From Vescimonas coprocola (lineage in GTDB: Bacteria > Bacillota_I > Bacilli_A > RF39 > UBA660), in the NCBI GenBank assembly GCA_963660615.1, contig CAVKYE010000005.1, positions 3,349 to 67,348 of the forward strand: a stretch of DNA of 64,000 bases, in the 5' to 3' direction. The translations under genes were made by a program, and so were the position numbers. Numbering within the stretch: position 1 is the first letter of the stretch; the number at the start of each line of letters is the position of its first letter. The notes below the pieces were generated by a model. That model searched no databases. It saw only the letters and a list, made by a program, of their open reading frames with translations, and had not been told where the DNA came from. Positions 7,198-35,772 of this stretch are shown piece after piece.

Positions 7198-7794
7198 ATT
7201 TAATTAAAAATAGATAACCATTAATTTTAATTTTTTTATAGAATATAGTATATTTTTATTGATGATAGAAATCACTTTTGATAATGTAAGAGGTATAGAA
7301 TTTGAGTGTCATTAACTGTTAAAATATTTAATTATTCTGGTTTTACCAACAGTTCTATATTAAACAACAATATTAGAGAATAGAGTAATAAATGTTACAA
7401 TAAATTGGTCTGTTATGTATTAGATTTTATTGAATTTGGTATTAAATTAAAAGTTTAGAATGTTATTTGATATGGGTATAATAATCGAAGAATAATAAGA
7501 AAAAAAGAAGAAGGAATTGTTAAATTTATAATAATTATGATTGCTTAAAAGCCTGTTTTTGTACTAACAAATGTGTGTTTAGTATTAAAAACTGGCTTTT
7601 TTGATGGTAATGCTGTTATAACAAAAGTCTTACATTTTATGATATGTATGACATACAAATAGTGATAATTCCCCTTAAAATAAAAGAAAACTCGCCACTG
7701 GTGTGTTGTTGTCATACAGGTTTAACCTGCTTAAAATTTCCACAAGAAAGGAGTATGAAAAACTAATTTTTCTGTATATTGGTACTCTTAATAT

Positions 7795-12737: not shown

Positions 12738-12953
12738 ACTGAAAGGCTTTGATGGAAAGAAGAATAGGTGACTTTATAGAGAGCTTATGGTTGGTGGAAA
12801 TAAGTAAGGTGACTATTTTAAATGGCTCCTTGAGCTTTGTGGCTGATATTTAGGCTATGACGTATGCTGGCGTTAACGCGAATGAGGTAAGTTTATACTT
12901 ATGAATTAAGGTGGTACCACGTTTTATGCGTCCTTATTGTTAGGGGCGTTTTT
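12738..12953 (+). promoter_or_regulatory. T-box riboswitch leader, probable Met specifier
   Basis: GA/K-turn-like TTGATGGAAAGAAG. AGAGAG bulge (12778-12783). Distal hairpin CTTAT-GGTTGGTGGAA-ATAAG. AUG+G in the specifier-loop position (12822-12824). T-box core AAGGTGGTACCACG (12908-12921). Terminator CGTCCT..AGGGGCG plus T5. Confidence 0.8.
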
Positions 12954-16030: not shown

Positions 16031-16508
16031 AAAAAAATGGAATTAAAATATATGTTTATTTTACTTCTAATGGTTCATTGTTAGGTGAAATAGATATTGA
16101 AAAAATCAAAAGGCATCCTACTTGGTTTCAAATTACAATAGATGATATAGGAATAAAGTATGATAATATAAAAAATATTATAGCAAGAAGTATAATTATG
16201 AATTAATTATAACAAATATAAAAAAATTGTTGGATAATGATATTCGTGTAAATATAAGAATAAATTATAATCCTGGTGAAATACAAAACACGAAAAAAGT
16301 AATTGCTAATTTAAATGAAGAATTTAATATTTATTTAGATAAAGGTCTTGTTAATATAACTCCCGCACCTATTTTTAATATGATAAAAACTAATGTGGTT
16401 AAAGTTAGGGAAGGGAGTAATTGTAAATATTCACAATTGTATGAATATTCTGAAAAAAATAATTGTGATAGTATATTATATTTTGATGATGAGATAAATT
16501 TGATATAA
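16031..16508 (+). pseudogene. radical SAM (SPASM-type maturase-like) gene remnant, frameshifted and N-terminally truncated
   Basis: Frame 1 reads ..IYVYFTSNGSLLGEIDIEKIK..WFQITIDDIGIKYDNIK (TNG-LL / SxDG-like pattern), then stops. Frame 2 is ORF 16227-16508 (VNIRINYNPGEIQN..). No CxxxCxxC part is left. Confidence 0.4.
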
Positions 16509-16519
16509 GGTGGTGAAAT

Positions 16520-17017
16520 ATGAGTTATGAGATAAAGATTATTGATACTAATATGGGGATTTGTGAATATCAAATGTATCAAGATATTCCTTCTGTGGAG
16601 TTAGGTTCTAGTAATGAAATTAAGGATAAATCTTTTGAAGAGTATAAGGAAATATTAAAAAAGTATAAAAAGTTTGAGAAGGAATTAGATTTAGAGGTTA
16701 ATTCGACAACTAATAGATATATTTTTTATGTTGATGGTGTGCCGGTTGGTGAGATTGGTATTAGGACGACTATAAATGATTTTTGGTTAAATAGGGGTAG
16801 TCAGATATTTTATAAAATTAGGAAATCTTATAGAAATATGGGATATGGAACGATGATGTTGAAGCTTGGACTTTTAGAGTGTAAAAGAATGGGGATGAAG
16901 TCGGTTTGTTTAAATTGTAATGATAAAAATATTGCTTCTAAGCGAGTGATTTTGAAAAATGGTGGGAAATTATTATTTAATTATGGTGATAGTAGTAGGT
17001 ATGAGATTAATCTTTAA
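16520..17017 (+). CDS. GNAT family N-acetyltransferase
   Basis: RKSYRNMGYGTMMLKLGLLECKRMG (motif A Q/RxxGxG/A) and NIASKRVILKNGGK. Confidence 0.75.
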   Translation: MSYEIKIIDTNMGICEYQMYQDIPSVELGSSNEIKDKSFEEYKEILKKYKKFEKELDLEVNSTTNRYIFYVDGVPVGEIGIRTTINDFWLNRGSQIFYKIRKSYRNMGYGTMMLKLGLLECKRMGMKSVCLNCNDKNIASKRVILKNGGKLLFNYGDSSRYEINL

Positions 17018-17072
17018 GTGTATATAGTTATGCACTTTTTTTCTTTATTTGTGTTATAATGTAGAAAAATGA

Positions 17073-17522
17073 TTGAGGTGTTTTGTGGAAGGGGTTAAAG
17101 AGAAAGTATCTTGTATGACAATAGTTTTTGGGAAGAGTTTTGATGGTTTTAGGGTTCTTGTTTTGAATAATTTTGAATGGTTTTTTTCTAAGGGACATAT
17201 GGAAGGTGATGAGATAGAGGTTCAAACGGCTAAGCGTGAGCTTTCCCTTGAGGCTGGAGTACGGGTTTGTGATGATGAATGTTTTGGTAAGGTTTGTGAG
17301 TATAAGTTTTATTTTGATGGTGAGAAGGCTATTAAGGTAATTAAGGTTTATGGTTTTGTTATTTCTTCTATTTGCGATATTGTTGTTAATAGGGAAGAAG
17401 GGTTTATTTTTGGTAAATGGCTTTTGTTTGCTGAGGCTATGAAGATTCTTTTTCGCGATGATGCTCGTGAGGCTTTAAGTAAGTGTATGGTTAAATTGAA
17501 GGAGCTTGGTATTTATGTATAG
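17073..17522 (+). CDS. Nudix-fold protein (Ap4A-hydrolase-like) with a degenerate Nudix box; start uncertain (TTG 17073 / GTG 17085 / ATG 17115)
   Basis: FFSKGHMEGDEIEVQTAKRELSLEAGV aligns to GX5EX7REUXEEXGU, with the first Glu of the EE pair replaced by Leu. Confidence 0.55.
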   Translation: MRCFVEGVKEKVSCMTIVFGKSFDGFRVLVLNNFEWFFSKGHMEGDEIEVQTAKRELSLEAGVRVCDDECFGKVCEYKFYFDGEKAIKVIKVYGFVISSICDIVVNREEGFIFGKWLLFAEAMKILFRDDAREALSKCMVKLKELGIYV

Positions 17523-18198
17523 TGTGTTTTTTAGTCGAATGGAGATGGGAACTGATAGTGCTTTAGATAGACTTCGGGAGATTATTAAACCTTCTTTTAA
17601 GGTGGCTATTTTTCCTTGGGCTTTTAAGGAGGAGATTAGTGCTTTTGAGTTAGAAAATGATTTTTTTAGGAAAGGTAGTCCTAGATATAATAGATATGTT
17701 TTGGAGCTTAAGAAGACAGGTATTAGTGAAGATAATATTACGGTTTGTAATTGTTATAGTGATTCTTCTTCTAAGCTTAGAGATATAATTAGTTGTAGTG
17801 ATGTTTTGTTACTACCTGGTGGGAATCCAGAAATGTTTTTCAAAAAGGTTGTTTATGATACTGAGATTTTATATGATATTAGGCATTTTAAGGGGATTAT
17901 AATTGGAGAGAGTGCGGGATGTGAGCTTCAATTAACTAGGTATTTTATTACGGCTAAGAATAATTATTATAAGTATTTTGCTTTTTATGATGGTTTTGGG
18001 GTTATAAATAATTCATTTTATATTGATGTGCATACGGTGAATAATAGGAATTATTTAAATAAGTTACAAAAGGTTTCTAATGAGAAAAAAGCAGATATAT
18101 ATGCGATATATGATGATGGTGTGGTTATATATGATAGGTTGAGTGGTGTGTTTGAGGTGTATGGTAATGTTAAACTTTTTAAGCCCATGAGTGATTGA
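17515..18198 (+). CDS. peptidase S51 (dipeptidase E)-like / class I amidotransferase-like protein
   Basis: LLLPGGNPEMFF and IIGESAGCE (nucleophile elbow) motifs. ATG lies 10 nt after AAGGAG. Confidence 0.55.
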   Translation: MYSVFFSRMEMGTDSALDRLREIIKPSFKVAIFPWAFKEEISAFELENDFFRKGSPRYNRYVLELKKTGISEDNITVCNCYSDSSSKLRDIISCSDVLLLPGGNPEMFFKKVVYDTEILYDIRHFKGIIIGESAGCELQLTRYFITAKNNYYKYFAFYDGFGVINNSFYIDVHTVNNRNYLNKLQKVSNEKKADIYAIYDDGVVIYDRLSGVFEVYGNVKLFKPMSD

Positions 18199-18250
18199 TG
18201 TTAAATTTTTAATTATTGTTGTAATTGTTTTAAGCAGAAAATTCTGTTTT

Positions 18251-18306
18251 TTTCTTTATTTTAGTGCATTTTTTTGGTTATCGTGCTATAATTTGGGTGT
18301 AGTATT
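18251..18306 (+). promoter_or_regulatory. promoter element, copy 1 (repeated at 22021-22076)
   Basis: TTTCTTTATTTTAGTGCATTTTTTTGGTTATCGTGCTATAATTTGGGTGTAGTATT with TGcTATAAT (18287-18292 = -10). Confidence 0.55.
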
Positions 18307-18326: not shown

Positions 18327-20171
18327 ATGAATTTAAAAATCAATGAAGAAAAGTTTGAAGAAATTCAAAATAGGAAAAAATTAGAAGGGAATTTAAAAAA
18401 AGTGACGGGTTATCCAGCACTTGATAAACCTTGGGAAAGGTTTTATGACAAATGTGAATTTTATAAGCCTAAGACTTTGAAAACTGTTTATCAAGAGATT
18501 TATGATAATAATGTGGATTATCCAAACGATTTAGCGCTTGAGTATTTTTATGCTCATATAAGTTTTAATAATTTGTTTAAAAATATTGAAAAAACTGCGA
18601 AGTCATTAGAAGAATATGGAATTAAAAGAGGTGATTTTGTAACTATATGTGCGCCTGGTATGCCTGAAACTATTTATAGTTTTTATGCACTTTCAAAATT
18701 AGGTGGGGTTGCAAATATGATGGCACCTTATTTCGATCCAAAAGGTTTGGTAGAAAGAATTAATGAATGTGAAAGTGACTTATTAATTGTAATGGATAGT
18801 TTTTATGGTGTGATTAAGGATGCTATTGATAAATCTAGGATTAAAAATGTGGTTGTTGTTCCTACTTTTAATTCTTCACCACTTGGTATTGTTTTAAAAT
18901 CAAAATATAAATTACAGAAGAATAGTAATGAGATTTTTTGGAAAGAATTTATAAAGGATGGTAAGGGAAGAGAAGGAGTAGATGCATTACCATATGAGAA
19001 AAATAGGCCTCTTGCGATGGTTTATTCTAGTGGTACGACTGGAGCGGCTAAAGGTATATTACTTTCAAATGATAGTTTTCAAAATTCAATTCAATCTTAT
19101 CCAACTTTAGGTATAAATTTATCTAGGGGACAAAAGTTTTATCAAATAATACCTACATGGTATTCTACTGGTCTTAGTACGTCAGTTCATTTACCTTTAT
19201 CATATGGGTCTACTGTATTTATGGATCCGAGGTTTGAAAGGGAGGTTTTTGTTAAGAATGTTATAAAACATAAACCTAATTATGCTGTTGCAGCGACTAG
19301 TATATATGAAGGATTTTTAGATGAAAAACTTGTTGGTAATAGTGATTTGTCACATTTTAATTATCCTTTTGAGGGTGGAGAGCCTTTAAGAAGTGATGTT
19401 GCAGAACAAATTAACGAAGTTTTTAAACAACATGGTAGTGATGCTAAACTTGGGGCTGCTTATGGACAATGTGAGTGTGGTGGAGCAATTACTACACAAA
19501 CGACAGATGATGAACATTCTGCTGGTTCAGTTGGGATACCATTACCAGGGGTAACTTTAAATATTATGAATGATGATAAAGAAATGATGCCTTATAATGA
19601 GCGTGGAGTTATTTATGCTAACACACCATGTAGTATGATTGAGTATTACAAAAACGAGGCTGCTACTAATGAATATTTCTATATAGATGAAAATGGAACT
19701 AAATGGAATAATACTGGTGATATTGGTTATATAGATGAAAATGGAGAATTATATGTGCTTGGTAGAAGTAGTGATTATTCTATTATTGATGGTAAAAAGG
19801 TATATAATTTTGATATTGAGAATGTTATTATGCAATTTGATGAGGTTAGTCTTTGTGATGTTTTAGAAAAGAAAATTGATGATGGTACATCTACTGTGGT
19901 TGCTCATATAATTTTAGATGAAGCAGCTGAACAATTTTTAGGAAAGGATTCAGCTGCATTAAATGCTTTATTTAAAAGGATTCAAGATGCTATATATAGT
20001 GAGTTAAATGATGTTTCATTTGTTCCAACGTTATTTAAAATTAGAAAGGAATTTCCTTGTGCTCCTTCTGGGAAACGAGATGTTAATGGAATGAAAAATG
20101 AAACTGAAGGATTTATTGAAATGCCAAAATATATTTCTAATGATAAAAAAAAGAAATTGTCTTTATATTAA
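18327..20171 (+). CDS. adenylate-forming enzyme (AMP-binding / acyl-CoA synthetase superfamily), paralog 1
   Basis: MVYSSGTTGAAKGILLSN core motif A3, TGDIGYIDENGELYVLGR (A8-like), C-terminal PSGKRD. Confidence 0.85.
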   Translation: MNLKINEEKFEEIQNRKKLEGNLKKVTGYPALDKPWERFYDKCEFYKPKTLKTVYQEIYDNNVDYPNDLALEYFYAHISFNNLFKNIEKTAKSLEEYGIKRGDFVTICAPGMPETIYSFYALSKLGGVANMMAPYFDPKGLVERINECESDLLIVMDSFYGVIKDAIDKSRIKNVVVVPTFNSSPLGIVLKSKYKLQKNSNEIFWKEFIKDGKGREGVDALPYEKNRPLAMVYSSGTTGAAKGILLSNDSFQNSIQSYPTLGINLSRGQKFYQIIPTWYSTGLSTSVHLPLSYGSTVFMDPRFEREVFVKNVIKHKPNYAVAATSIYEGFLDEKLVGNSDLSHFNYPFEGGEPLRSDVAEQINEVFKQHGSDAKLGAAYGQCECGGAITTQTTDDEHSAGSVGIPLPGVTLNIMNDDKEMMPYNERGVIYANTPCSMIEYYKNEAATNEYFYIDENGTKWNNTGDIGYIDENGELYVLGRSSDYSIIDGKKVYNFDIENVIMQFDEVSLCDVLEKKIDDGTSTVVAHIILDEAAEQFLGKDSAALNALFKRIQDAIYSELNDVSFVPTLFKIRKEFPCAPSGKRDVNGMKNETEGFIEMPKYISNDKKKKLSLY

Positions 20172-20185
20172 AAGAATAAAAGGAG

Positions 20186-22003
20186 GTGTTTGCTGTGGTA
20201 GTGACTAATTTAACGATGCTAATTTTATTTAGTATCTTTTACATGTTTGGGGTATTATTTATCTATTTTTCAAAGACGAGATTAAAAAGTGAGGAAACGA
20301 AGATTTATTCTTTATTGATAATTTCTAATATAATTGGTTTATTTTTGCAATTATTATGTGATTTTGTTTCGTTTAAGTATGATGAATTATCTCCTATATT
20401 TTGTGATTTGATTTTTAGACTTTATTTAATATATTTTGTTGTTTGGACAACCTTGATTTTTATATATTTGATTGAAATTTCATTTAAGAATAAGAAAAAA
20501 ATTGTTAAATTAGCTATATTTGGGGCGATTATAGTAGCGGCAGGAGCACTTTTATTACCTTATGATTTGTATAGAAATATGGTAGATAAAATATATTATA
20601 CTTACAATGGTGCGGTTACTTTAGTATTTGCTTATGCTGGAATAATTGGTATGTTTATGTTTGCTATATTAATATTTAAGAGAAAAAATATAAGTAAGAG
20701 GAAGGCAATTCCGTTATGGATATTTATAATTTCTAGTTTGTTATTAACATATATACAGATGAATAGGCCAGAATTTGTAGTAATGGCGGCGATGGAAAGT
20801 TTTATTTGTTGTATGATGTATTTTACTATTGAAAATCCTGATGTGCAGATGATTAATGAACTTTATAAGAATAAAAAATTAATTGAGAAATCTAATGAGG
20901 ATACTTCTAGGTTTTTGTTTAGGATTACTCAGGATATTAGGAGGCCAGTAGAGGAAATTAGTGATATTAGTAATGATATGAAAACTTTGAATACTAAGGA
21001 AGAATTTATAGAGGCTAGTAAATATATTAATAATTATAGTAATCAAGTTGATTATTTGATTAATAAGGCTTTAAATATTTCTAATATGGATACACAAACT
21101 ATTAAGATTTTTGAGAACAAATATAACCCTCGTAATTTGTTTAAGGAAGTTAGTTTTAGGGCTTTGGAGAATAAGAATGACAATATTAAATTTAGTTACC
21201 AGTTAAGTAATAGTCTTCCTAATTATTTATATGGAGATTCTATTAAGCTTAAACAGACTTTATCCTCTATTATTAATATTGCTTATAGTTATACTAGTTC
21301 TGGTTTTGTTAATATGGATGTGAGTACGATTATTAAGTATGGTATTTGTAGACTTGTTATTACAATTGAGGATTCTGGACGTGGTATTAGTATTGATAGG
21401 ATAAATGAGATTCTTAGTATGACTGGTAGTGATTTAAAGAGTGTTAATATTTCTAATAATGATAATTGTTATTTGGATATTATTTCGGTTAAGAAGCTTG
21501 TTAATATGCTTGGTGGTTCACTTATGATTAAGAGTGAAGAAAATAAGGGTACTGTTGTTACGATTACTTTGGATCAAAGGATTGTTAAGGATAAGAGTAC
21601 TGAGTTATCTAAGAAATTAGAAAGGTATGAGCAGTCTTTGTATGGGGATAAAAAAGCTCTTGTTATTGATTCTGATGAGAAGGAACTTGTTTTGATTTCT
21701 GATGTTTTACAGAAAAGTGGTATAACGGTTTCATCTTCGGTTTATGCGAAGGATTGTATAGAAAATATTAGAAGTAAGATGAAATATGATTTTATTATTT
21801 TGGATGATGTTTTATCTGATAGTAGTGCTTATGATGTTTTAAAGGAAATATCAAAGAATAAAAATTTTAAGATTCCAGTTATTGTTATGATTAGTGATAA
21901 TAAGGAAGGAATAAAACTTCATTACATGAAGGATGGATTTTTTGATTGTATTATGAAATCTAAATTAGATTCAGAGCTTGAGAGAATTCTTAAGAGATTT
22001 TAA
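20186..22003 (+). CDS. 7TM hybrid histidine-kinase-like receptor (H-box His replaced by Gln), paralog 1; start may be GTG 20195
   Basis: Seven hydrophobic helices in the first ~210 aa. RFLFRITQDIRRPV in the H-box position. HATPase_c N box (IINIAYSYT), DSGRGI, LGGSL. C-terminal receiver (ALVIDSDE, FIILDD, VIVMISD, IMKS). Confidence 0.8.
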   Translation: MFAVVVTNLTMLILFSIFYMFGVLFIYFSKTRLKSEETKIYSLLIISNIIGLFLQLLCDFVSFKYDELSPIFCDLIFRLYLIYFVVWTTLIFIYLIEISFKNKKKIVKLAIFGAIIVAAGALLLPYDLYRNMVDKIYYTYNGAVTLVFAYAGIIGMFMFAILIFKRKNISKRKAIPLWIFIISSLLLTYIQMNRPEFVVMAAMESFICCMMYFTIENPDVQMINELYKNKKLIEKSNEDTSRFLFRITQDIRRPVEEISDISNDMKTLNTKEEFIEASKYINNYSNQVDYLINKALNISNMDTQTIKIFENKYNPRNLFKEVSFRALENKNDNIKFSYQLSNSLPNYLYGDSIKLKQTLSSIINIAYSYTSSGFVNMDVSTIIKYGICRLVITIEDSGRGISIDRINEILSMTGSDLKSVNISNNDNCYLDIISVKKLVNMLGGSLMIKSEENKGTVVTITLDQRIVKDKSTELSKKLERYEQSLYGDKKALVIDSDEKELVLISDVLQKSGITVSSSVYAKDCIENIRSKMKYDFIILDDVLSDSSAYDVLKEISKNKNFKIPVIVMISDNKEGIKLHYMKDGFFDCIMKSKLDSELERILKRF

Positions 22004-22026
22004 AGCCTATTTTGGCTTTTTTTCTT
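20816..22026. repeat. ~1.2 kb near-identical repeat, copy A (cytoplasmic half of kinase 1 plus terminator)
   Basis: Constant offset of 3916 nt to copy B and identical translation. Differences seen: GAA/GAG at 20833, stop TAA/TAG, one base in the terminator. Confidence 0.9.
22002..22024 (+). terminator. rho-independent terminator
   Basis: AAAGCC-TATTTT-GGCTTT followed by a T run. Confidence 0.6.
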
Positions 22027-22076
22027 TATTTTAGTGCATTTTTTTGGTTATCGTGTTATAATTTGTGTGTAGTATT
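22021..22076 (+). promoter_or_regulatory. promoter element, copy 2
   Basis: Same 56 nt as 18251-18306 with 2 mismatches. TGtTATAAT, -10 at 22057-22062. Confidence 0.55.
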
Positions 22077-22097
22077 TAGTTAGATTGGGGGGAAATA

Positions 22098-24002
22098 ATG
22101 ACTAAAACACAAATTAAGCCTTATGAAAAGGCTAATCAAACTGTATATGACTATATATATAATGAAAATAGTCATAGACTAGAGCTTCCAGCTATTAATT
22201 ATTTTGATAATAGGATTTCTTATCGAGATTTCTTACATAATAGTATGGTTGTTGCTAAGGCGCTTGATGATTATGGAATTAAAAGGGGAGATTTTGTTAC
22301 TGTAGTAGCACCTAGTTTGCCTGAGACGTATTATATTCTTTTGGCGGCTAGTAAGATTGGTGCAGTTGCTAATTTTGTTGATCCTAGATATGGTGAAAAG
22401 GCGATTGAACACAAGATAAATGCAGCAGGTTCTGAACTTGTAATTGCATTTGATGGTGCTGTTAAAACGGTTAATTCAAAAACTGGTGAGGCAAAACCTG
22501 TTCATGTTTTGGACAAGGTTGGAAATGTTTTGGATAACACTAGTGCTAAAACGGTTATTGGACTTCCAGCTAGTAATTCTATTGCTTTAAGGTCTATTAT
22601 TAAAAATGATATAATAAGGGCTGCTATGTTTGATAAACAGGTTAGTGATTTTAAAAATTATTATTCTTGGAAGGAGTTTTTTAAGACTGGTGTTAAGGGA
22701 CTTTCTTTTGGAAAGATTGATGCTGTTTTACCAGAGTCAGAGTTTTATAAAGATTCTCCAGTTGCAGTTGTGTCTACTGGTGGAACTACTGGTATGCCAA
22801 AGAGTGCTTTGTTTTCTAATGAAAATATTATAAGTGCGACTTTACAATGCCGTGAGACGGGAATATTTCCTGAAGAGGCAAGATGGTATGACATTATGCC
22901 TCCTTCAATTGCTTATGGTCTTGCTGATGGTTCTATTTTGCCTTTTTCTCTTGGTAATGAGGTTAAATTAAATCCAGATCCAACTTCTATGAGTTTAAAG
23001 AATCCAAAACAGTTACATATGGTTGAAGATTTTGTAAGATTTGATCCACATACTATTGCTTGTGCTCCTAATCATGTTTTTGCTATTTTGGATAGTAAAG
23101 AATGGCAAAATAATTCACATAGTCTTATCAATTTTATTGTTGGTGGTGATTCTTTAAATAAAGAACAACTTAGAAGGGCTAATGAAAAGCTTAAATTTGT
23201 AAAAAGACCACGAAAATTTGACAAAGAAAAATTACTAGGTGATAGAGAAGATATTTTGAAGATAAATACTGGTTGGGGTTCAACTGAAACTACGGCAGCG
23301 GCTAGTGTTGCTCGTGGTAGTGAAAATGTTAAAGATAATGCGGTTGGACAAGTATTACCTAATGAAATTGTTAGAGCTTTTAGGAAAAATGATTCTGGTG
23401 ATTATGAAGAATTGCCTACTATTAAATCATCTGATGTAGATAATGTTTCTGAAAATCAAATTGGTGAATTATGTGTGGCTGGTCCAAATGTATTTTTAGG
23501 TTATTTAAATAATCAGGAAGAAACTGATAAGACTATTATAACTCATGATGGAGAAAGATGGGCTCATCAAGGTGATTTGGGTTTTGTTGAGGAGACTTCA
23601 AATGGTGATGAATACGTTCATTTTATTGATAGAGAAAAATATGTGTGTGTCAGATATGATGGTTTTAAGGTTACTCCAGTAGAAATTGAGAATGTTATTT
23701 TGAAAGATGATAATATTGATGGATGTAAAGCTGTGGTATTTGATGATTTAAATCATGAAAAAGGTAGTGTTATAAAAGTTTATTATACATTGAAGAAAGA
23801 TCGTGTTGTGGATATTGAAGCACTAGAGGAACGTATTAGTTTAATGTGTGAGACTGAACTTGCTGATTATAAGTGTCCTACTGCTTATGAGTGTTTGGAG
23901 GTTTTACCACTTACTGGTTCTGGTAAGATAGATGTTATGACTTTGAAAAAAGATGCTTTAGAAAAGGCTAAATTGTCTATTAAATCTAAGACTTTAGATT
24001 AA
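22098..24002 (+). CDS. adenylate-forming enzyme (AMP-binding superfamily), paralog 2
   Basis: VVSTGGTTGMPKSALFSN, GWGSTET, HQGDLGFVEE.., C-terminal GSGKID. Confidence 0.85.
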   Translation: MTKTQIKPYEKANQTVYDYIYNENSHRLELPAINYFDNRISYRDFLHNSMVVAKALDDYGIKRGDFVTVVAPSLPETYYILLAASKIGAVANFVDPRYGEKAIEHKINAAGSELVIAFDGAVKTVNSKTGEAKPVHVLDKVGNVLDNTSAKTVIGLPASNSIALRSIIKNDIIRAAMFDKQVSDFKNYYSWKEFFKTGVKGLSFGKIDAVLPESEFYKDSPVAVVSTGGTTGMPKSALFSNENIISATLQCRETGIFPEEARWYDIMPPSIAYGLADGSILPFSLGNEVKLNPDPTSMSLKNPKQLHMVEDFVRFDPHTIACAPNHVFAILDSKEWQNNSHSLINFIVGGDSLNKEQLRRANEKLKFVKRPRKFDKEKLLGDREDILKINTGWGSTETTAAASVARGSENVKDNAVGQVLPNEIVRAFRKNDSGDYEELPTIKSSDVDNVSENQIGELCVAGPNVFLGYLNNQEETDKTIITHDGERWAHQGDLGFVEETSNGDEYVHFIDREKYVCVRYDGFKVTPVEIENVILKDDNIDGCKAVVFDDLNHEKGSVIKVYYTLKKDRVVDIEALEERISLMCETELADYKCPTAYECLEVLPLTGSGKIDVMTLKKDALEKAKLSIKSKTLD

Positions 24003-24083
24003 TGACAATATGTCTTTTTTTGTAAAAAAATTTACTTTTTTGTTCTTTTAATGTTATAATGGAGATAATATAAGGAGGTTTTT

Positions 24084-25919
24084 ATGGTTATAGGTGTATC
24101 TGTTATTAGTTGTTGTTTGATTTATAGTATTTTGCTTATGATAATTTATTTTTCTAAGCAAAGATTAGATAACATGGAAAATAAGGTTTATGGTGTTATG
24201 GTTATAATAAATATTTTTGGCCTTATTTTGGAACTTTTGTGTTGCTATTTTACTTATAAAAATGGTGATAGTTCTATCAATTCTTTGCTTTGTTCTATTT
24301 GTAATAGGTTATTTATTATATATATGCTTACTTGGCTTTTTCTGTTTACTTTTTATATATTTTATATTACTTTTAGTAAGCAGGTTAGTATTAAGAAAGA
24401 GCTTGATAGATATAAACAGTTATTTTTGAAAGTGGCAACTTTTATATATGTTATTTTGTTTTTATTAGCGATGATTTTACCTATTTATTACTTTAATGAC
24501 GGAACGTATGTATATAGTTATGGGCCAGCGACATCTTTGCTTGTTGTTTTTGGTGGCACTTCAATTTTATTTGATATATTTTGTGTTGTTAAAAATAGAA
24601 AAAATATTAGATCTAAACAGTATTATCCACTTTTTGTATTTATTTTACTTATGATTGTTGTTTTAATAATTAGAAATATAAATCCTGGAATAATACTTAT
24701 TAATTCAACTTTTGCATTTATAACTATGATTATGTATTTTACTATTGAGAATCCTGATGTGCAGATGATTAATGAACTTTATAAGAATAAAAAATTAATT
24801 GAGAAATCTAATGAGGATACTTCTAGGTTTTTGTTTAGGATTACTCAGGATATTAGGAGGCCAGTAGAGGAAATTAGTGATATTAGTAATGATATGAAAA
24901 CTTTGAATACTAAGGAAGAATTTATAGAGGCTAGTAAATATATTAATAATTATAGTAATCAAGTTGATTATTTGATTAATAAGGCTTTAAATATTTCTAA
25001 TATGGATACACAAACTATTAAGATTTTTGAGAACAAATATAACCCTCGTAATTTGTTTAAGGAAGTTAGTTTTAGGGCTTTGGAGAATAAGAATGACAAT
25101 ATTAAATTTAGTTACCAGTTAAGTAATAGTCTTCCTAATTATTTATATGGAGATTCTATTAAGCTTAAACAGACTTTATCCTCTATTATTAATATTGCTT
25201 ATAGTTATACTAGTTCTGGTTTTGTTAATATGGATGTGAGTACGATTATTAAGTATGGTATTTGTAGACTTGTTATTACAATTGAGGATTCTGGACGTGG
25301 TATTAGTATTGATAGGATAAATGAGATTCTTAGTATGACTGGTAGTGATTTAAAGAGTGTTAATATTTCTAATAATGATAATTGTTATTTGGATATTATT
25401 TCGGTTAAGAAGCTTGTTAATATGCTTGGTGGTTCACTTATGATTAAGAGTGAAGAAAATAAGGGTACTGTTGTTACGATTACTTTGGATCAAAGGATTG
25501 TTAAGGATAAGAGTACTGAGTTATCTAAGAAATTAGAAAGGTATGAGCAGTCTTTGTATGGGGATAAAAAAGCTCTTGTTATTGATTCTGATGAGAAGGA
25601 ACTTGTTTTGATTTCTGATGTTTTACAGAAAAGTGGTATAACGGTTTCATCTTCGGTTTATGCGAAGGATTGTATAGAAAATATTAGAAGTAAGATGAAA
25701 TATGATTTTATTATTTTGGATGATGTTTTATCTGATAGTAGTGCTTATGATGTTTTAAAGGAAATATCAAAGAATAAAAATTTTAAGATTCCAGTTATTG
25801 TTATGATTAGTGATAATAAGGAAGGAATAAAACTTCATTACATGAAGGATGGATTTTTTGATTGTATTATGAAATCTAAATTAGATTCAGAGCTTGAGAG
25901 AATTCTTAAGAGATTTTAG
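24084..25919 (+). CDS. 7TM hybrid histidine-kinase-like receptor, paralog 2
   Basis: Diverged multi-pass N-terminus. The C-terminal ~395 aa are identical to 20186-22003. Confidence 0.8.
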   Translation: MVIGVSVISCCLIYSILLMIIYFSKQRLDNMENKVYGVMVIINIFGLILELLCCYFTYKNGDSSINSLLCSICNRLFIIYMLTWLFLFTFYIFYITFSKQVSIKKELDRYKQLFLKVATFIYVILFLLAMILPIYYFNDGTYVYSYGPATSLLVVFGGTSILFDIFCVVKNRKNIRSKQYYPLFVFILLMIVVLIIRNINPGIILINSTFAFITMIMYFTIENPDVQMINELYKNKKLIEKSNEDTSRFLFRITQDIRRPVEEISDISNDMKTLNTKEEFIEASKYINNYSNQVDYLINKALNISNMDTQTIKIFENKYNPRNLFKEVSFRALENKNDNIKFSYQLSNSLPNYLYGDSIKLKQTLSSIINIAYSYTSSGFVNMDVSTIIKYGICRLVITIEDSGRGISIDRINEILSMTGSDLKSVNISNNDNCYLDIISVKKLVNMLGGSLMIKSEENKGTVVTITLDQRIVKDKSTELSKKLERYEQSLYGDKKALVIDSDEKELVLISDVLQKSGITVSSSVYAKDCIENIRSKMKYDFIILDDVLSDSSAYDVLKEISKNKNFKIPVIVMISDNKEGIKLHYMKDGFFDCIMKSKLDSELERILKRF

Positions 25920-25942
25920 AGCTTATTTTGGCTTTTTTTCTT
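24732..25942. repeat. ~1.2 kb near-identical repeat, copy B
   Basis: See copy A. Confidence 0.9.
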
Positions 25943-26047
25943 TGATTTTACATAAAAACTGTAAAATGTAGTATTTTGTCGGGTTTTTATAATTGAATTT
26001 TCTTGTTATTGGTGGTATATTTGATTTATGGAATAGAGGGAGATTTT

Positions 26048-26212
26048 ATGCATACGAAAGATAAACAAAATTTTGTTGTAGGCTTTTCTTTTGTTGTAAT
26101 TATTTGTTTTTTAGTAGCAAATTTGATGACTAAATTTGTGGTTTTGGATTTGGTTTATTTGTTATTTATGGTTGGGTGTTTTATAAGGTTTATCTATATT
26201 AAAATTCATTAG
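26048..26212 (+). CDS. small hypothetical membrane protein (54 aa)
   Basis: ATG after AGAGGGAG; two hydrophobic helices. Flanked by a 19-bp direct repeat. Confidence 0.35.
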   Translation: MHTKDKQNFVVGFSFVVIICFLVANLMTKFVVLDLVYLLFMVGCFIRFIYIKIH

Positions 26213-26364
26213 ATTTTGGTATGGGTATTTTTTTTACATTTTTTTACATTTTAGCTTTTTTTCTTTGATTTTGATAAAATATTACTTTTTTTATTGTTTA
26301 TAATATTTATTTTTATGAAATTATTTTAAAATATGCTATAATTTTTTTGATTGGAGTGATTTTT

Positions 26365-27123
26365 ATGATGATTGATACTCATTGTCATTTGTTTAAGGAG
26401 GATTATCCTGATTTAGATGCCGTCATAAAAAATATGGATGGGAATATAATGATAGTAAGTAGTGCAGGTCCTTCTGATATTGATGAGGTTATGGATTTGA
26501 TTGATAAGTATGATAATATTTATGGTACTATTGGTATTCATCCTGAGTATGCGGATACTTATACTATTGATGATTTGAATAAGGTGGAGGCTTGTTTATC
26601 TCATCCTAAGGTTGTGGGCGTTGGGGAGATTGGGCTTGATTACCATTATACGTCTTTAAATAAGGAGGCTCAAAAGGAGTTATTTATTAAGCAGATTAAG
26701 CTTGCTAATAAATATGGGAAGACGATTGTTATTCATACTCGTGATGCTATGCGTGATACTTATGATATTTTGAAGGAATATAAAGATAAAGATTTGAAGT
26801 GTAATCTGCACTGCTATGGTGGTAGTTTAGAGATGGCTTATGAATTTATCAAGTTAAATTGTACTTTTGGTATTGGTGGAGTTCTTACTTTTAAGAATGA
26901 GAAGAAACTTAAGGAAATTGTTAAAAGGCTTGATATTTCTAATTTTGTTTTAGAGACTGACTCTCCATACCTTACTCCTTCGCCTTTTAGGGGAAAGAGA
27001 AATGAACCTAAAAATATATATTATGTGGCTTTATGTATTGCGGATTTAAGAGGTATGGAGTTGGATGATGTTTTGGCTATTACAAGTTCTACTGCTATGC
27101 GTCAATTTGACATAAATATTTAG
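26365..27123 (+). CDS. tatD: TatD family metal-dependent hydrolase/DNase
   Basis: MIDTHCHL, GEIGLDYHY, VIHTRDA, ETDSPYL motifs. Matches metG-yabD synteny of Bacillota. Confidence 0.88.
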   Translation: MMIDTHCHLFKEDYPDLDAVIKNMDGNIMIVSSAGPSDIDEVMDLIDKYDNIYGTIGIHPEYADTYTIDDLNKVEACLSHPKVVGVGEIGLDYHYTSLNKEAQKELFIKQIKLANKYGKTIVIHTRDAMRDTYDILKEYKDKDLKCNLHCYGGSLEMAYEFIKLNCTFGIGGVLTFKNEKKLKEIVKRLDISNFVLETDSPYLTPSPFRGKRNEPKNIYYVALCIADLRGMELDDVLAITSSTAMRQFDINI

Positions 27124-35638: not shown

Positions 35639-35772
35639 TTGAATGTGTGGCATGCAATGATGTGTGAGGTTGCTGAGATGCCAGGTTAAGTTGTAAACAT
35701 TTACAATGGCATACTTAGGTTTTTTACACGGAGCAAGTCTATACTGAGATATAGGCGAAAGGAGGATACAAT
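35639..35772 (+). promoter_or_regulatory. structured S10-operon 5' leader
   Basis: ATGCC(A) at 35678-35683 can pair with either GGCAT (35649-35653) or TGGCAT (35707-35712). The latter hairpin is followed a few nt later by T6. Confidence 0.4.

Follow-up and report, generated by a model that had tools for sequence, protein, structure and literature searches.

Tandem ligase and receptor genes with divergent sensor halves and a near-identical cytoplasmic half in Vescimonas coprocola

Organization of the locus

We have analysed a stretch of 64 000 nucleotides (nt) of DNA from Vescimonas coprocola (contig CAVKYE010000005.1), termed the window, which contains two tandem genes encoding membrane receptors, each preceded by a gene for an ANL adenylate-forming ligase. 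An earlier note, made by reading this DNA, had drawn attention to the near-identity of the cytoplasmic halves of the two receptors. Positions given without a locus name are those of the window, and all the features described lie on the + strand.

The listing of open reading frames (ORFs) together with repeat finding reveals four co-directional genes, in the order ligase L1, receptor R1, ligase L2 and receptor R2. These are arranged as two tandem units, because a segment of 60 nt from the promoter region is repeated ahead of each ligase gene (18247-18306 and 22017-22076, 97% identical); this repeat had been missed in the earlier note. Each unit reads promoter, ANL ligase, seven-transmembrane (7TM) sensor half of the receptor, cytoplasmic half of the receptor, terminator. 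The term cassette is used here for a ligase gene taken together with the part of the receptor gene that encodes the 7TM half.

The first unit opens with promoter copy 1 (18247..18306), which begins inside the T-run of the preceding terminator and contains an extended -10 element (TGCTATAAT). The putative promoter was assigned by reading this element by eye in the repeat; a promoter scan of the window gave no more sites than in shuffled sequence, and did not call the repeated promoter. There follow ligase A (L1, 614 amino acids (aa), 18327..20171) and the sensor half of R1 (20195..20812; the ORF starts at 20186 or 20195), which together make up a cassette of type A. The cytoplasmic half of R1 (20813..22003) comprises a DHp-like helix with glutamine in place of the phospho-acceptor histidine, a HATPase_c domain and a receiver domain. 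The intrinsic terminator found by a terminator scan (AAAGCCTATTTTGGCTTT followed by a T-run, 22002..22027) closes the unit, and the repeated sequence that includes the cytoplasmic half runs on to its end at 22027. The T-run overlaps the start of promoter copy 2 (22017..22076), and this forms the junction between the units. In the second unit ligase C (L2, 634 aa, 22098..24002) and the sensor half of R2 (24084..24728, delimited by sequence comparison) make up a cassette of type C. The second copy of the cytoplasmic half (24729..25919, the repeat running on to 25943) ends in a terminator (25918..25943) that has the stem-loop of unit 1 with one base changed (25923 T). Unique sequence follows directly after this terminator, with no promoter copy. 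An apparent third copy of the repeat designated D2 (26358-26399, 71%) was rejected as a chance match. No RNA elements were found inside the receptor locus by comparison with Rfam, and the gaps of 14-80 nt between ligase and receptor genes leave no space for a gene encoding a precursor peptide.

The repeated cytoplasmic half

Ungapped comparison of 20813/20816-22027 with 24729/24732-25943 (an offset of 3916 nt) gave three mismatches over about 1212 nt. The first is synonymous (GAA to GAG; 20833 A, 24749 G), the second lies in the stop codon (TAA to TAG; 22003 A, 25919 G) and the third in the terminator stem (22007 C, 25923 T). Chance is unable to yield 1212 nt at 99.75% identity. Scored in bins of 30 nt, every bin inside the repeat is 30/30, and the neighbouring bins score 11-15/30 on the upstream side and 5-10/30 on the downstream side. 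Both edges are therefore abrupt, the identity going down to about 45% over a few bases. From MYFTIENPDVQ onward R1 and R2 translate to an identical 395 aa; their N-terminal 7TM halves are 30% identical, and L1 and L2 are 28% identical. Identity begins at M207/M208 of the sequence MYFTIENPD, which is the hinge between transmembrane helix 7 (TM7, residues 197-211 in the AlphaFold model) and the DHp helix (from residue 215).

The earlier note had this right in every detail: near-identity from 20816 and 24732 to beyond the terminators at a constant offset of 3916, the same three nucleotide differences and no others, about 395 aa translating identically, 7TM regions and ligases that are highly diverged, and a boundary at the end of the last transmembrane helix. 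The gradual decay of identity that would have spoken against it is not seen at either edge.

The same mosaic in other strains and species

Two metagenome-assembled genomes (MAGs) of the window species from NCBI (L001 and L002) carry L1, R1, L2 and the start of R2. Their contigs break about 57 nt into the repeat, the usual repeat-induced break. A Logan contig (L091) contains L2 and R2 with the junction between the second sensor half and the constant half intact. Both junctions are therefore real in independent assemblies, that of R1 in L001 and L002 and that of R2 in L091.

Another strain (L003) has flanks that are 99.2-99.4% identical to those of the window, yet carries a single unit. Its ligase has 914 aa; its receptor matches R1 and R2 in the sensor half at 25% and 35% identity respectively, and in the constant half it is 99.5% identical to the window. 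The promoter region is identical too, there standing ahead of a different ligase. Identity between L003 and the window breaks off at the start codon of the ligase gene and is restored from the hinge onward.

The arrangement recurs in a second species (L007), which has two tandem units on a contig of 75 kb. Its housekeeping proteins are 51-70% identical to those of the window, and a SpoVT/AbrB-type protein 39%. The two L007 receptors share a repeat of 1217 nt at 99.5% identity that starts about 16 nt before the MYFTIENPD motif; their sensor halves are 26% and their ligases 29% identical. The cytoplasmic half of L007 is 54% identical to that of the window. Comparison of L043 and L045, two different species-level genomes, over 21 kb showed that only the constant half (1208 nt, 93.5%) and ~190 nt of the promoter region can be aligned, and here too the breakpoint is at the hinge. 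Thus the comparison with other strains and species that had been proposed in the earlier note found the junction between membrane and output domains reused as a breakpoint (in L003, in L007, and in L043 versus L045).

We also observed that the tandem receptors of L036 (9977-15475) are 88.7% identical in nucleotide sequence over 1422 nt, starting some 230 nt before the hinge motif, which has the look of an older tract of homogenization with different bounds. A metagenome scan with the constant half returned three loci only, none from the window species.

Evidence for homogenization within genomes

Six copies of the constant half were available from four samples, with 21 variable sites between them. 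R1 and R2 of the window differ at three sites, and every pair of copies taken from different genomes differs at 6-16. This includes pairs with the same type of cassette (10 and 12 differences for A versus A, 7 for C versus C). Between 20834 and 22002 there are 18 segregating sites in the population, none of which differs between the two copies in the window. Copies within a genome are thus closer to each other than to copies in other genomes, silent sites and terminator included, as is found in concerted evolution.

Blocks of polymorphism are held in common by copies whatever their cassette type. The markers at the 3′ end (22003 and 22007) follow the position in the array, being AC where a promoter copy comes next and GT where the unit is the last. 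In L091 promoter-type sequence follows the C-type unit, so the order or number of units varies between strains. Among the variable codons of the cytoplasmic half there are 16 synonymous versus 3 non-synonymous, so that the half is functional and under purifying selection.

The earlier note had proposed gene conversion, the swapping of modules, or recombination restricted to the signalling half. At the level of the DNA this is supported by the recurrence of the mosaic, by the third cassette found in L003, by the cassette types that different species have in common and by the haplotypes.

Cassette types versus the constant half

Three types of cassette can be compared across species. Type A (L1 and R1 of the window versus L004 and the first unit of L007, L007a) has 83-87% identity in the ligase and 72-83% in the 7TM half, the sensor half of R1 being 83% identical to that of L004 and 72% to that of L007a. 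Type B (L003 versus the second unit of L007, L007b) has 68% and 80%, and type C (L2 and R2 versus L011) has 73% and 71%. In the same cross-species comparisons the cytoplasmic halves are 53-63% identical, housekeeping proteins 51-73% and the SpoVT/AbrB-type protein 39-40%. Different species thus have cassette types in common, whereas the cytoplasmic half goes with the genome.

The ligase A proteins of the window and L004 are 87% identical and their methionyl-tRNA synthetases (MetRS) 66%, while for L004 and L007, which are the closer species, the values are 83% and 89%. The history of the cassettes therefore departs from that of the species, because the closer pair shares less identity in ligase A. 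Over 70 pairs the identity of the ligase tracks that of the sensor half (Mantel r 0.37) better than that of the constant half (0.22). Four-fold sites are saturated in all the comparisons between species, so that the sharing of cassettes reflects either old lateral exchange or long-lived types that have been sorted differently, and no recent transfer.

Domains and predicted structure of the receptors

Both receptors match HATPase_c and Response_reg in Pfam, and neither has a Pfam match to HisKA. The best match of the cytoplasmic half to a solved structure is the kinase region of RetS (6dk8/6dk7, E 6e-12), with a sequence identity of about 20%, and RetS is also present in the Foldseek list for the model. 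In this alignment 'FLFRITQDIRRP' lies opposite 'FLAKISHEIRTP' of RetS, such that a glutamine faces the phospho-accepting histidine. This is Gln246 of R1 (20930-20932), with its equivalent at 24846-24848 in R2. The receptors thus lack the histidine in the H-box that defines a canonical hybrid sensor histidine kinase.

The ATPase domain scores 43 bits for HATPase_c in the window receptors, versus 85-99 bits in relatives that contain the histidine. Its fold is confirmed in the predicted structure, and the G1 box (DSGRG) is present. No G2 box could be recognized by eye, 'NCYLDIISVKKLV' standing where GxGLGL is expected. The receiver domain has the acidic pocket, the phospho-acceptor aspartate and the conserved lysine, with D492, D537/D538 and K588/K590 invariant across 67 relatives.

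The AlphaFold model of the full-length receptor has a pLDDT of 80, and that of the sensor half alone a pLDDT of 87 and a pTM of 0.84. Seven transmembrane helices are predicted in both models, with a beta hairpin between TM4 and TM5, although none of the Pfam 7TM families matches the receptor. Foldseek with the full-length model returned cytoplasmic kinases only. With the model of the sensor half the matches were exclusively 7TM domains of eukaryotic G-protein-coupled receptors (GPCRs; CaSR and GABA-B of class C, and adhesion GPCRs), at query-normalized TM-scores of 0.55-0.67 and E-values of about 1e-3. Since the structural E-values are only of this order we treat the match as one of shared topology and not of homology. 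The features in common with GPCRs, and with the 7TMR-DISM receptors, are a seven-helix bundle with the N-terminus outside and the C-terminus inside, here fused directly to the transmitter.

The receptor family and its partner enzymes

The receptor family includes 1588 proteins below 1e-5, and at least 587 loci belong to it when each species is represented by a single genome. The hosts are nearly all MAGs of uncultured gut bacteria classified as 'Bacilli', 'Tenericutes' or 'Mycoplasmatota'. At eight loci the canonical H-box 'SHEIRTP' is kept along with HisKA, and some of these receptors carry Hpt; the remaining loci, the window included, have Q, A, G or E at the position of the histidine. The window receptors are therefore histidine-less derivatives of a family of 7TM hybrid kinases, because a minority retain the canonical HisKA, and the family may hold both working kinases and histidine-less modulators. 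Our search of the literature for the receptor family, or for a system of a ligase plus a hybrid kinase, found nothing relevant.

L1 and L2 both match AMP-binding in Pfam (2e-54 and 2e-45), and L2 also matches AMP-binding_C. On reading the translations, the A3 motif (T/S-G-T-T-G-x-x-K) is intact in both ('SSGTTGAAKG' in L1 and 'TGGTTGMPKS' in L2), as is the A10 motif (G-K; 'PSGKRD' and 'GSGKID'). The closest NCBIfam models are long-chain-fatty-acid--CoA ligases, all scoring below their cut-offs, and relatives in the PDB are 4-coumarate-CoA ligase, FadD-1 and luciferase.

An ANL ligase is encoded directly upstream of the receptor in about 75 of the 87 loci surveyed. Among nine other upstream partners that were checked there are seven PlsC-type acyltransferases (PF01553), the remaining two giving no match in Pfam; at 10 further loci a PlsC-type acyltransferase lies near the ligase and receptor genes. 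The PlsC-type partners suggest that the family has to do with the metabolism of acyl lipids. As a side observation, it is usually such an acyltransferase that precedes the receptor where the ligase does not stand directly before it. The loci with such a partner, either directly upstream or near the receptor, are L057, L058, L065, L068, L047, L046, L085 and L043, and at some loci acyltransferase, ligase and receptor occur together.

The ligase of type B is longer, at about 914 aa (L003 2891-5635, L007 11890-14637). The extra ~350 aa at its N-terminus contain a second, partial stretch of AMP-binding in Pfam that is seemingly degenerate. An assignment of this extension as an Aas-like acyltransferase was rejected, since it has no similarity to stand-alone acyltransferases.

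Probable exchange of cassettes and homogenization of the transmitter

The explanation that we consider the likely one is of a tandem receptor array in which cassettes have been exchanged by crossover at the hinge, while the transmitter halves have been homogenized. Old and discrete types of cassette would be swapped between strains, and over longer times between species, by homologous recombination that is anchored in the promoter region upstream and in the cytoplasmic half downstream. The downstream crossover would take place only within the invariant hinge sequence MYFTIENPD, which joins TM7 to the DHp helix. The tandem cytoplasmic halves of 1.2 kb would in turn be homogenized by gene conversion or unequal crossing-over, and in the window this is recent since there are zero differences between 20834 and 22002. 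This part of the explanation, i.e. exchange of cassettes and recent gene conversion or unequal crossing-over, is well supported.

The functional part must be put more conditionally. Each 7TM half might bind its own small hydrophobic ligand, related to the carboxylate or acyl substrate of its ligase or to the product. A hydrophobic acyl or lipid ligand is suggested by the partner enzymes (the ligase and the PlsC-type acyltransferase) and by a 7TM bundle that is poor in loops. Both sensors would then act through one transmitter, comprising the histidine-less DHp-like domain, a degenerate ATPase domain and an intact receiver. The earlier note had described two sensor domains plugged into one shared output module. 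The identity of the two transmitter halves bears this out at the level of the DNA; that both drive a single output is something that we infer, because by sequence there is no working kinase, the phospho-acceptor histidine being replaced by glutamine. Since the dimerization (DHp) helices are identical, R1 and R2 would not be insulated from each other, and would be able to heterodimerize and to share a partner.

Rather than autophosphorylating, the receptors probably act in the manner of RetS, by modulating or draining a canonical kinase or a phosphorelay; this is argued by analogy from the best structural match, the missing histidine and the intact receiver. RetS of Pseudomonas aeruginosa works through binding to the DHp domain of GacS and through the draining of phosphate, and not through a kinase activity of its own (PMC8498467). 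Both RetS and the receptors studied here are hybrids with DHp, CA and receiver domains, and a G2 box is not recognizable in either. However, RetS retains the histidine, its sensor domain is periplasmic, and it contains two receiver domains. The likeness concerns the way of working and not membership of a family, and no GacS-like partner is known here.

Several points weigh against this explanation. The window was found to encode no other protein with a receiver or kinase domain, no Hpt and no response regulator, and no ligand was found in it. Around 80 loci there is no conserved third gene, the neighbours being generic apart from more PlsC-type acyltransferases. In some pairs the types of the ligase and of the 7TM half are uncoupled, one being R2 versus L013, with 73% identity in the 7TM half and 37% in the ligase. 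The sharing of cassettes across species could be ancient trans-species polymorphism combined with strong constraint. Homogenization is not general, since in other tandem pairs the cytoplasmic halves are 95, 83, 80, 57, 55 and 48% identical. In every such pair they exceed the sensor halves (23-38%), and the wide span of identity indicates that homogenization is episodic. The data fit gene conversion and recent unequal crossover between allelic units alike, and the array of the window is known from assembly alone.

Comparison with known systems

The closest parallels for the cassettes come from quorum sensing in Gram-positive bacteria, namely the specificity groups of the Staphylococcus agr locus (AgrB-AgrD-AgrC) and the pherotypes of the Bacillus ComQXP locus (ComQ-ComX-ComP), in which an enzyme gene and the sensor half vary while the transmitter half and the promoter are conserved, and where discrete types coexist in one species with some of them common across species. 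The variable segment in loci of this kind reportedly extends over the gene of the partner enzyme and the sensor half (Tortosa et al. 2001). The same layout is found on comparing the window (types A and C) with L003 (type B), one breakpoint being at the start codon of the ligase gene and the other at the TM7/DHp hinge. Polymorphism of agr and of ComQXPA has been described (PMC8768832, PMC8919982, PMC4408185). There are differences, however. The locus studied here encodes neither a peptide precursor nor, next to the receptor, a cognate response regulator. In place of a peptide-processing enzyme there is an ANL ligase or a PlsC-type acyltransferase as partner, the receptor is a hybrid protein that lacks the phospho-acceptor histidine, and a single genome carries two types in tandem, the constant halves of which are homogenized.

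This likeness raises the question of whether each ligase makes, or helps to make, a secreted acylated signal for its cognate 7TM half, in which case the cassettes would be pherotypes; the contrasting view is of sensors paired with enzymes, both directed at exogenous fatty acids or at membrane lipids. The ligase and 7TM types are seen to co-vary, and the layout of variable enzyme and sensor half, constant transmitter and promoter, and several types per species is that of agr and ComQXP. But a gene for a precursor peptide is missing from the locus, as are an exporter and an adjacent response regulator. Acyl-activating ligases of a generic kind and PlsC-type acyltransferases would fit lipid scavenging in gut Bacilli with small genomes equally well, and two types in one genome are unusual for pherotype loci. 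We regard secreted signals as possible, though doubtful. It is rather unlikely, in our view, that each cassette stands for one recognition type in a new system of uncultured gut Bacilli with small genomes, serving for communication between cells or for sensing of host lipids and based on acyl compounds or lipids instead of peptides. In such a system a GPCR-like 7TM sensor would be fused to a histidine-less transmitter, which modulates a separate phosphorelay. If it were so, strains would swap cassettes at a fixed hinge, and by stacking types would hear several signals through one channel.

For the homogenized halves the parallel is with the concerted evolution of paralogues by gene conversion or unequal crossing-over, examples being bacterial tuf genes and rRNA operons. 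Here as there, paralogues within a genome are closer than orthologues, the tracts have sharp edges, and identity extends to silent and non-coding positions. By contrast with those systems only half of a gene is homogenized, with an edge at the hinge between protein domains, and the other half together with the upstream gene is kept as deeply divergent types. The locus may thus be described as a pherotype-like cassette polymorphism combined with concerted evolution, in an uncharacterized receptor family.

Other origins of the repeat

The near-identity might alternatively have arisen by recent tandem duplication of a whole unit, followed by replacement of one ligase and 7TM half with foreign sequence, the cytoplasmic halves then being young duplicates with no ongoing conversion. 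The unit boundaries, with a promoter copy and a T-run junction, do resemble those of a tandem duplication; cassettes are clearly replaceable, and the number and order of units vary between strains. Yet near-identity recurs in the second species, L036 is in an intermediate state (88.7% at the nucleotide level), and the polymorphisms of the cytoplasmic half are shuffled among copies in the population regardless of cassette type. For these three reasons we prefer repeated exchange to a single duplication, which seems to us an improbable history, although the two overlap in that both are recombination between units.

It is highly improbable that one true cytoplasmic half was copied or collapsed onto two genes in assembly or polishing. 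Short-read MAG assemblies do break right at the repeat (L001 and L002, about 57 nt in), a contig of 1309 nt (P0006) holds the constant half only, and the array of the window is known from an assembly unaccompanied by reads. Against this, the junction of the first sensor half in L001 and L002 and that of the second in L091 were assembled independently, some of the three bases that distinguish the copies are position-specific markers at the 3′ end and are seen again in other samples, both ORFs are intact, and the same architecture is present on the 75-kb contig of another species.

Purifying selection on the protein alone (for example for fit to one partner) would account for the ratio of 16 synonymous to 3 non-synonymous variable codons, but it fails because all the synonymous sites and the non-coding terminator are essentially identical too, and since between species the half is only 54% identical, and so evolves faster than a sensor half of the same type, we give this refuted explanation virtually no weight.

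Implications of the proposed exchange and homogenization

Paralogous two-component proteins normally evolve away from cross-talk. In contrast, the exchange of cassettes and homogenization of the transmitter that we favour have left two sensors joined to one identical transmitter. The locus provides a clean natural case of modularity at the level of domains in bacterial receptors, with one hinge reused as a breakpoint in several species, and this hinge offers a ready-made splice point for the engineering of chimeric receptors. The pairing of the family with acyl-activating ligases or PlsC-type acyltransferases points to a link between lipid or acyl metabolism and signalling in uncultured organisms.

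Neighbouring features of the window

The receptor array is followed by a small ORF (26051..26212), about 53 aa long and predicted to have two transmembrane segments, for which Pfam gives no match; its conserved motif D-x-x-YLLF-x-x-GCF-x-R-x-IYI-K-x-H is found in the window, L003, L004-6/9, L007 and L088/89. Over the window and the other loci the ORF is of about 53-57 aa (L003 ~7550-7710, L004 11932-12105, L007 16587-16760, and also in L088 and L089). It follows the array in all the close relatives though the downstream context differs in other respects, and may be associated with the receptor system.

Upstream, between metS and the array (16227-18198), there are genes for a 93-aa protein, a GNAT acetyltransferase, a NUDIX hydrolase and a protein with a weak match to peptidase S51. 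L004 and L007 are without these four small genes, the ligase following directly after metS, and from the sequences they appear to be strain- or species-specific filler at one insertion point. A T-box leader (Rfam RF00230, 109.5 bits) at 12740-12938 is located ahead of a run of dUTPase, DHH and MetRS genes, and presumably controls the operon of the methionyl-tRNA synthetase, which lies just before the receptor locus. The window also contains one tRNA gene (1985-2057), and an S10 ribosomal-protein leader (RF03136, just above the cut-off) at 35649-35758, ahead of a cluster of ribosomal protein genes.

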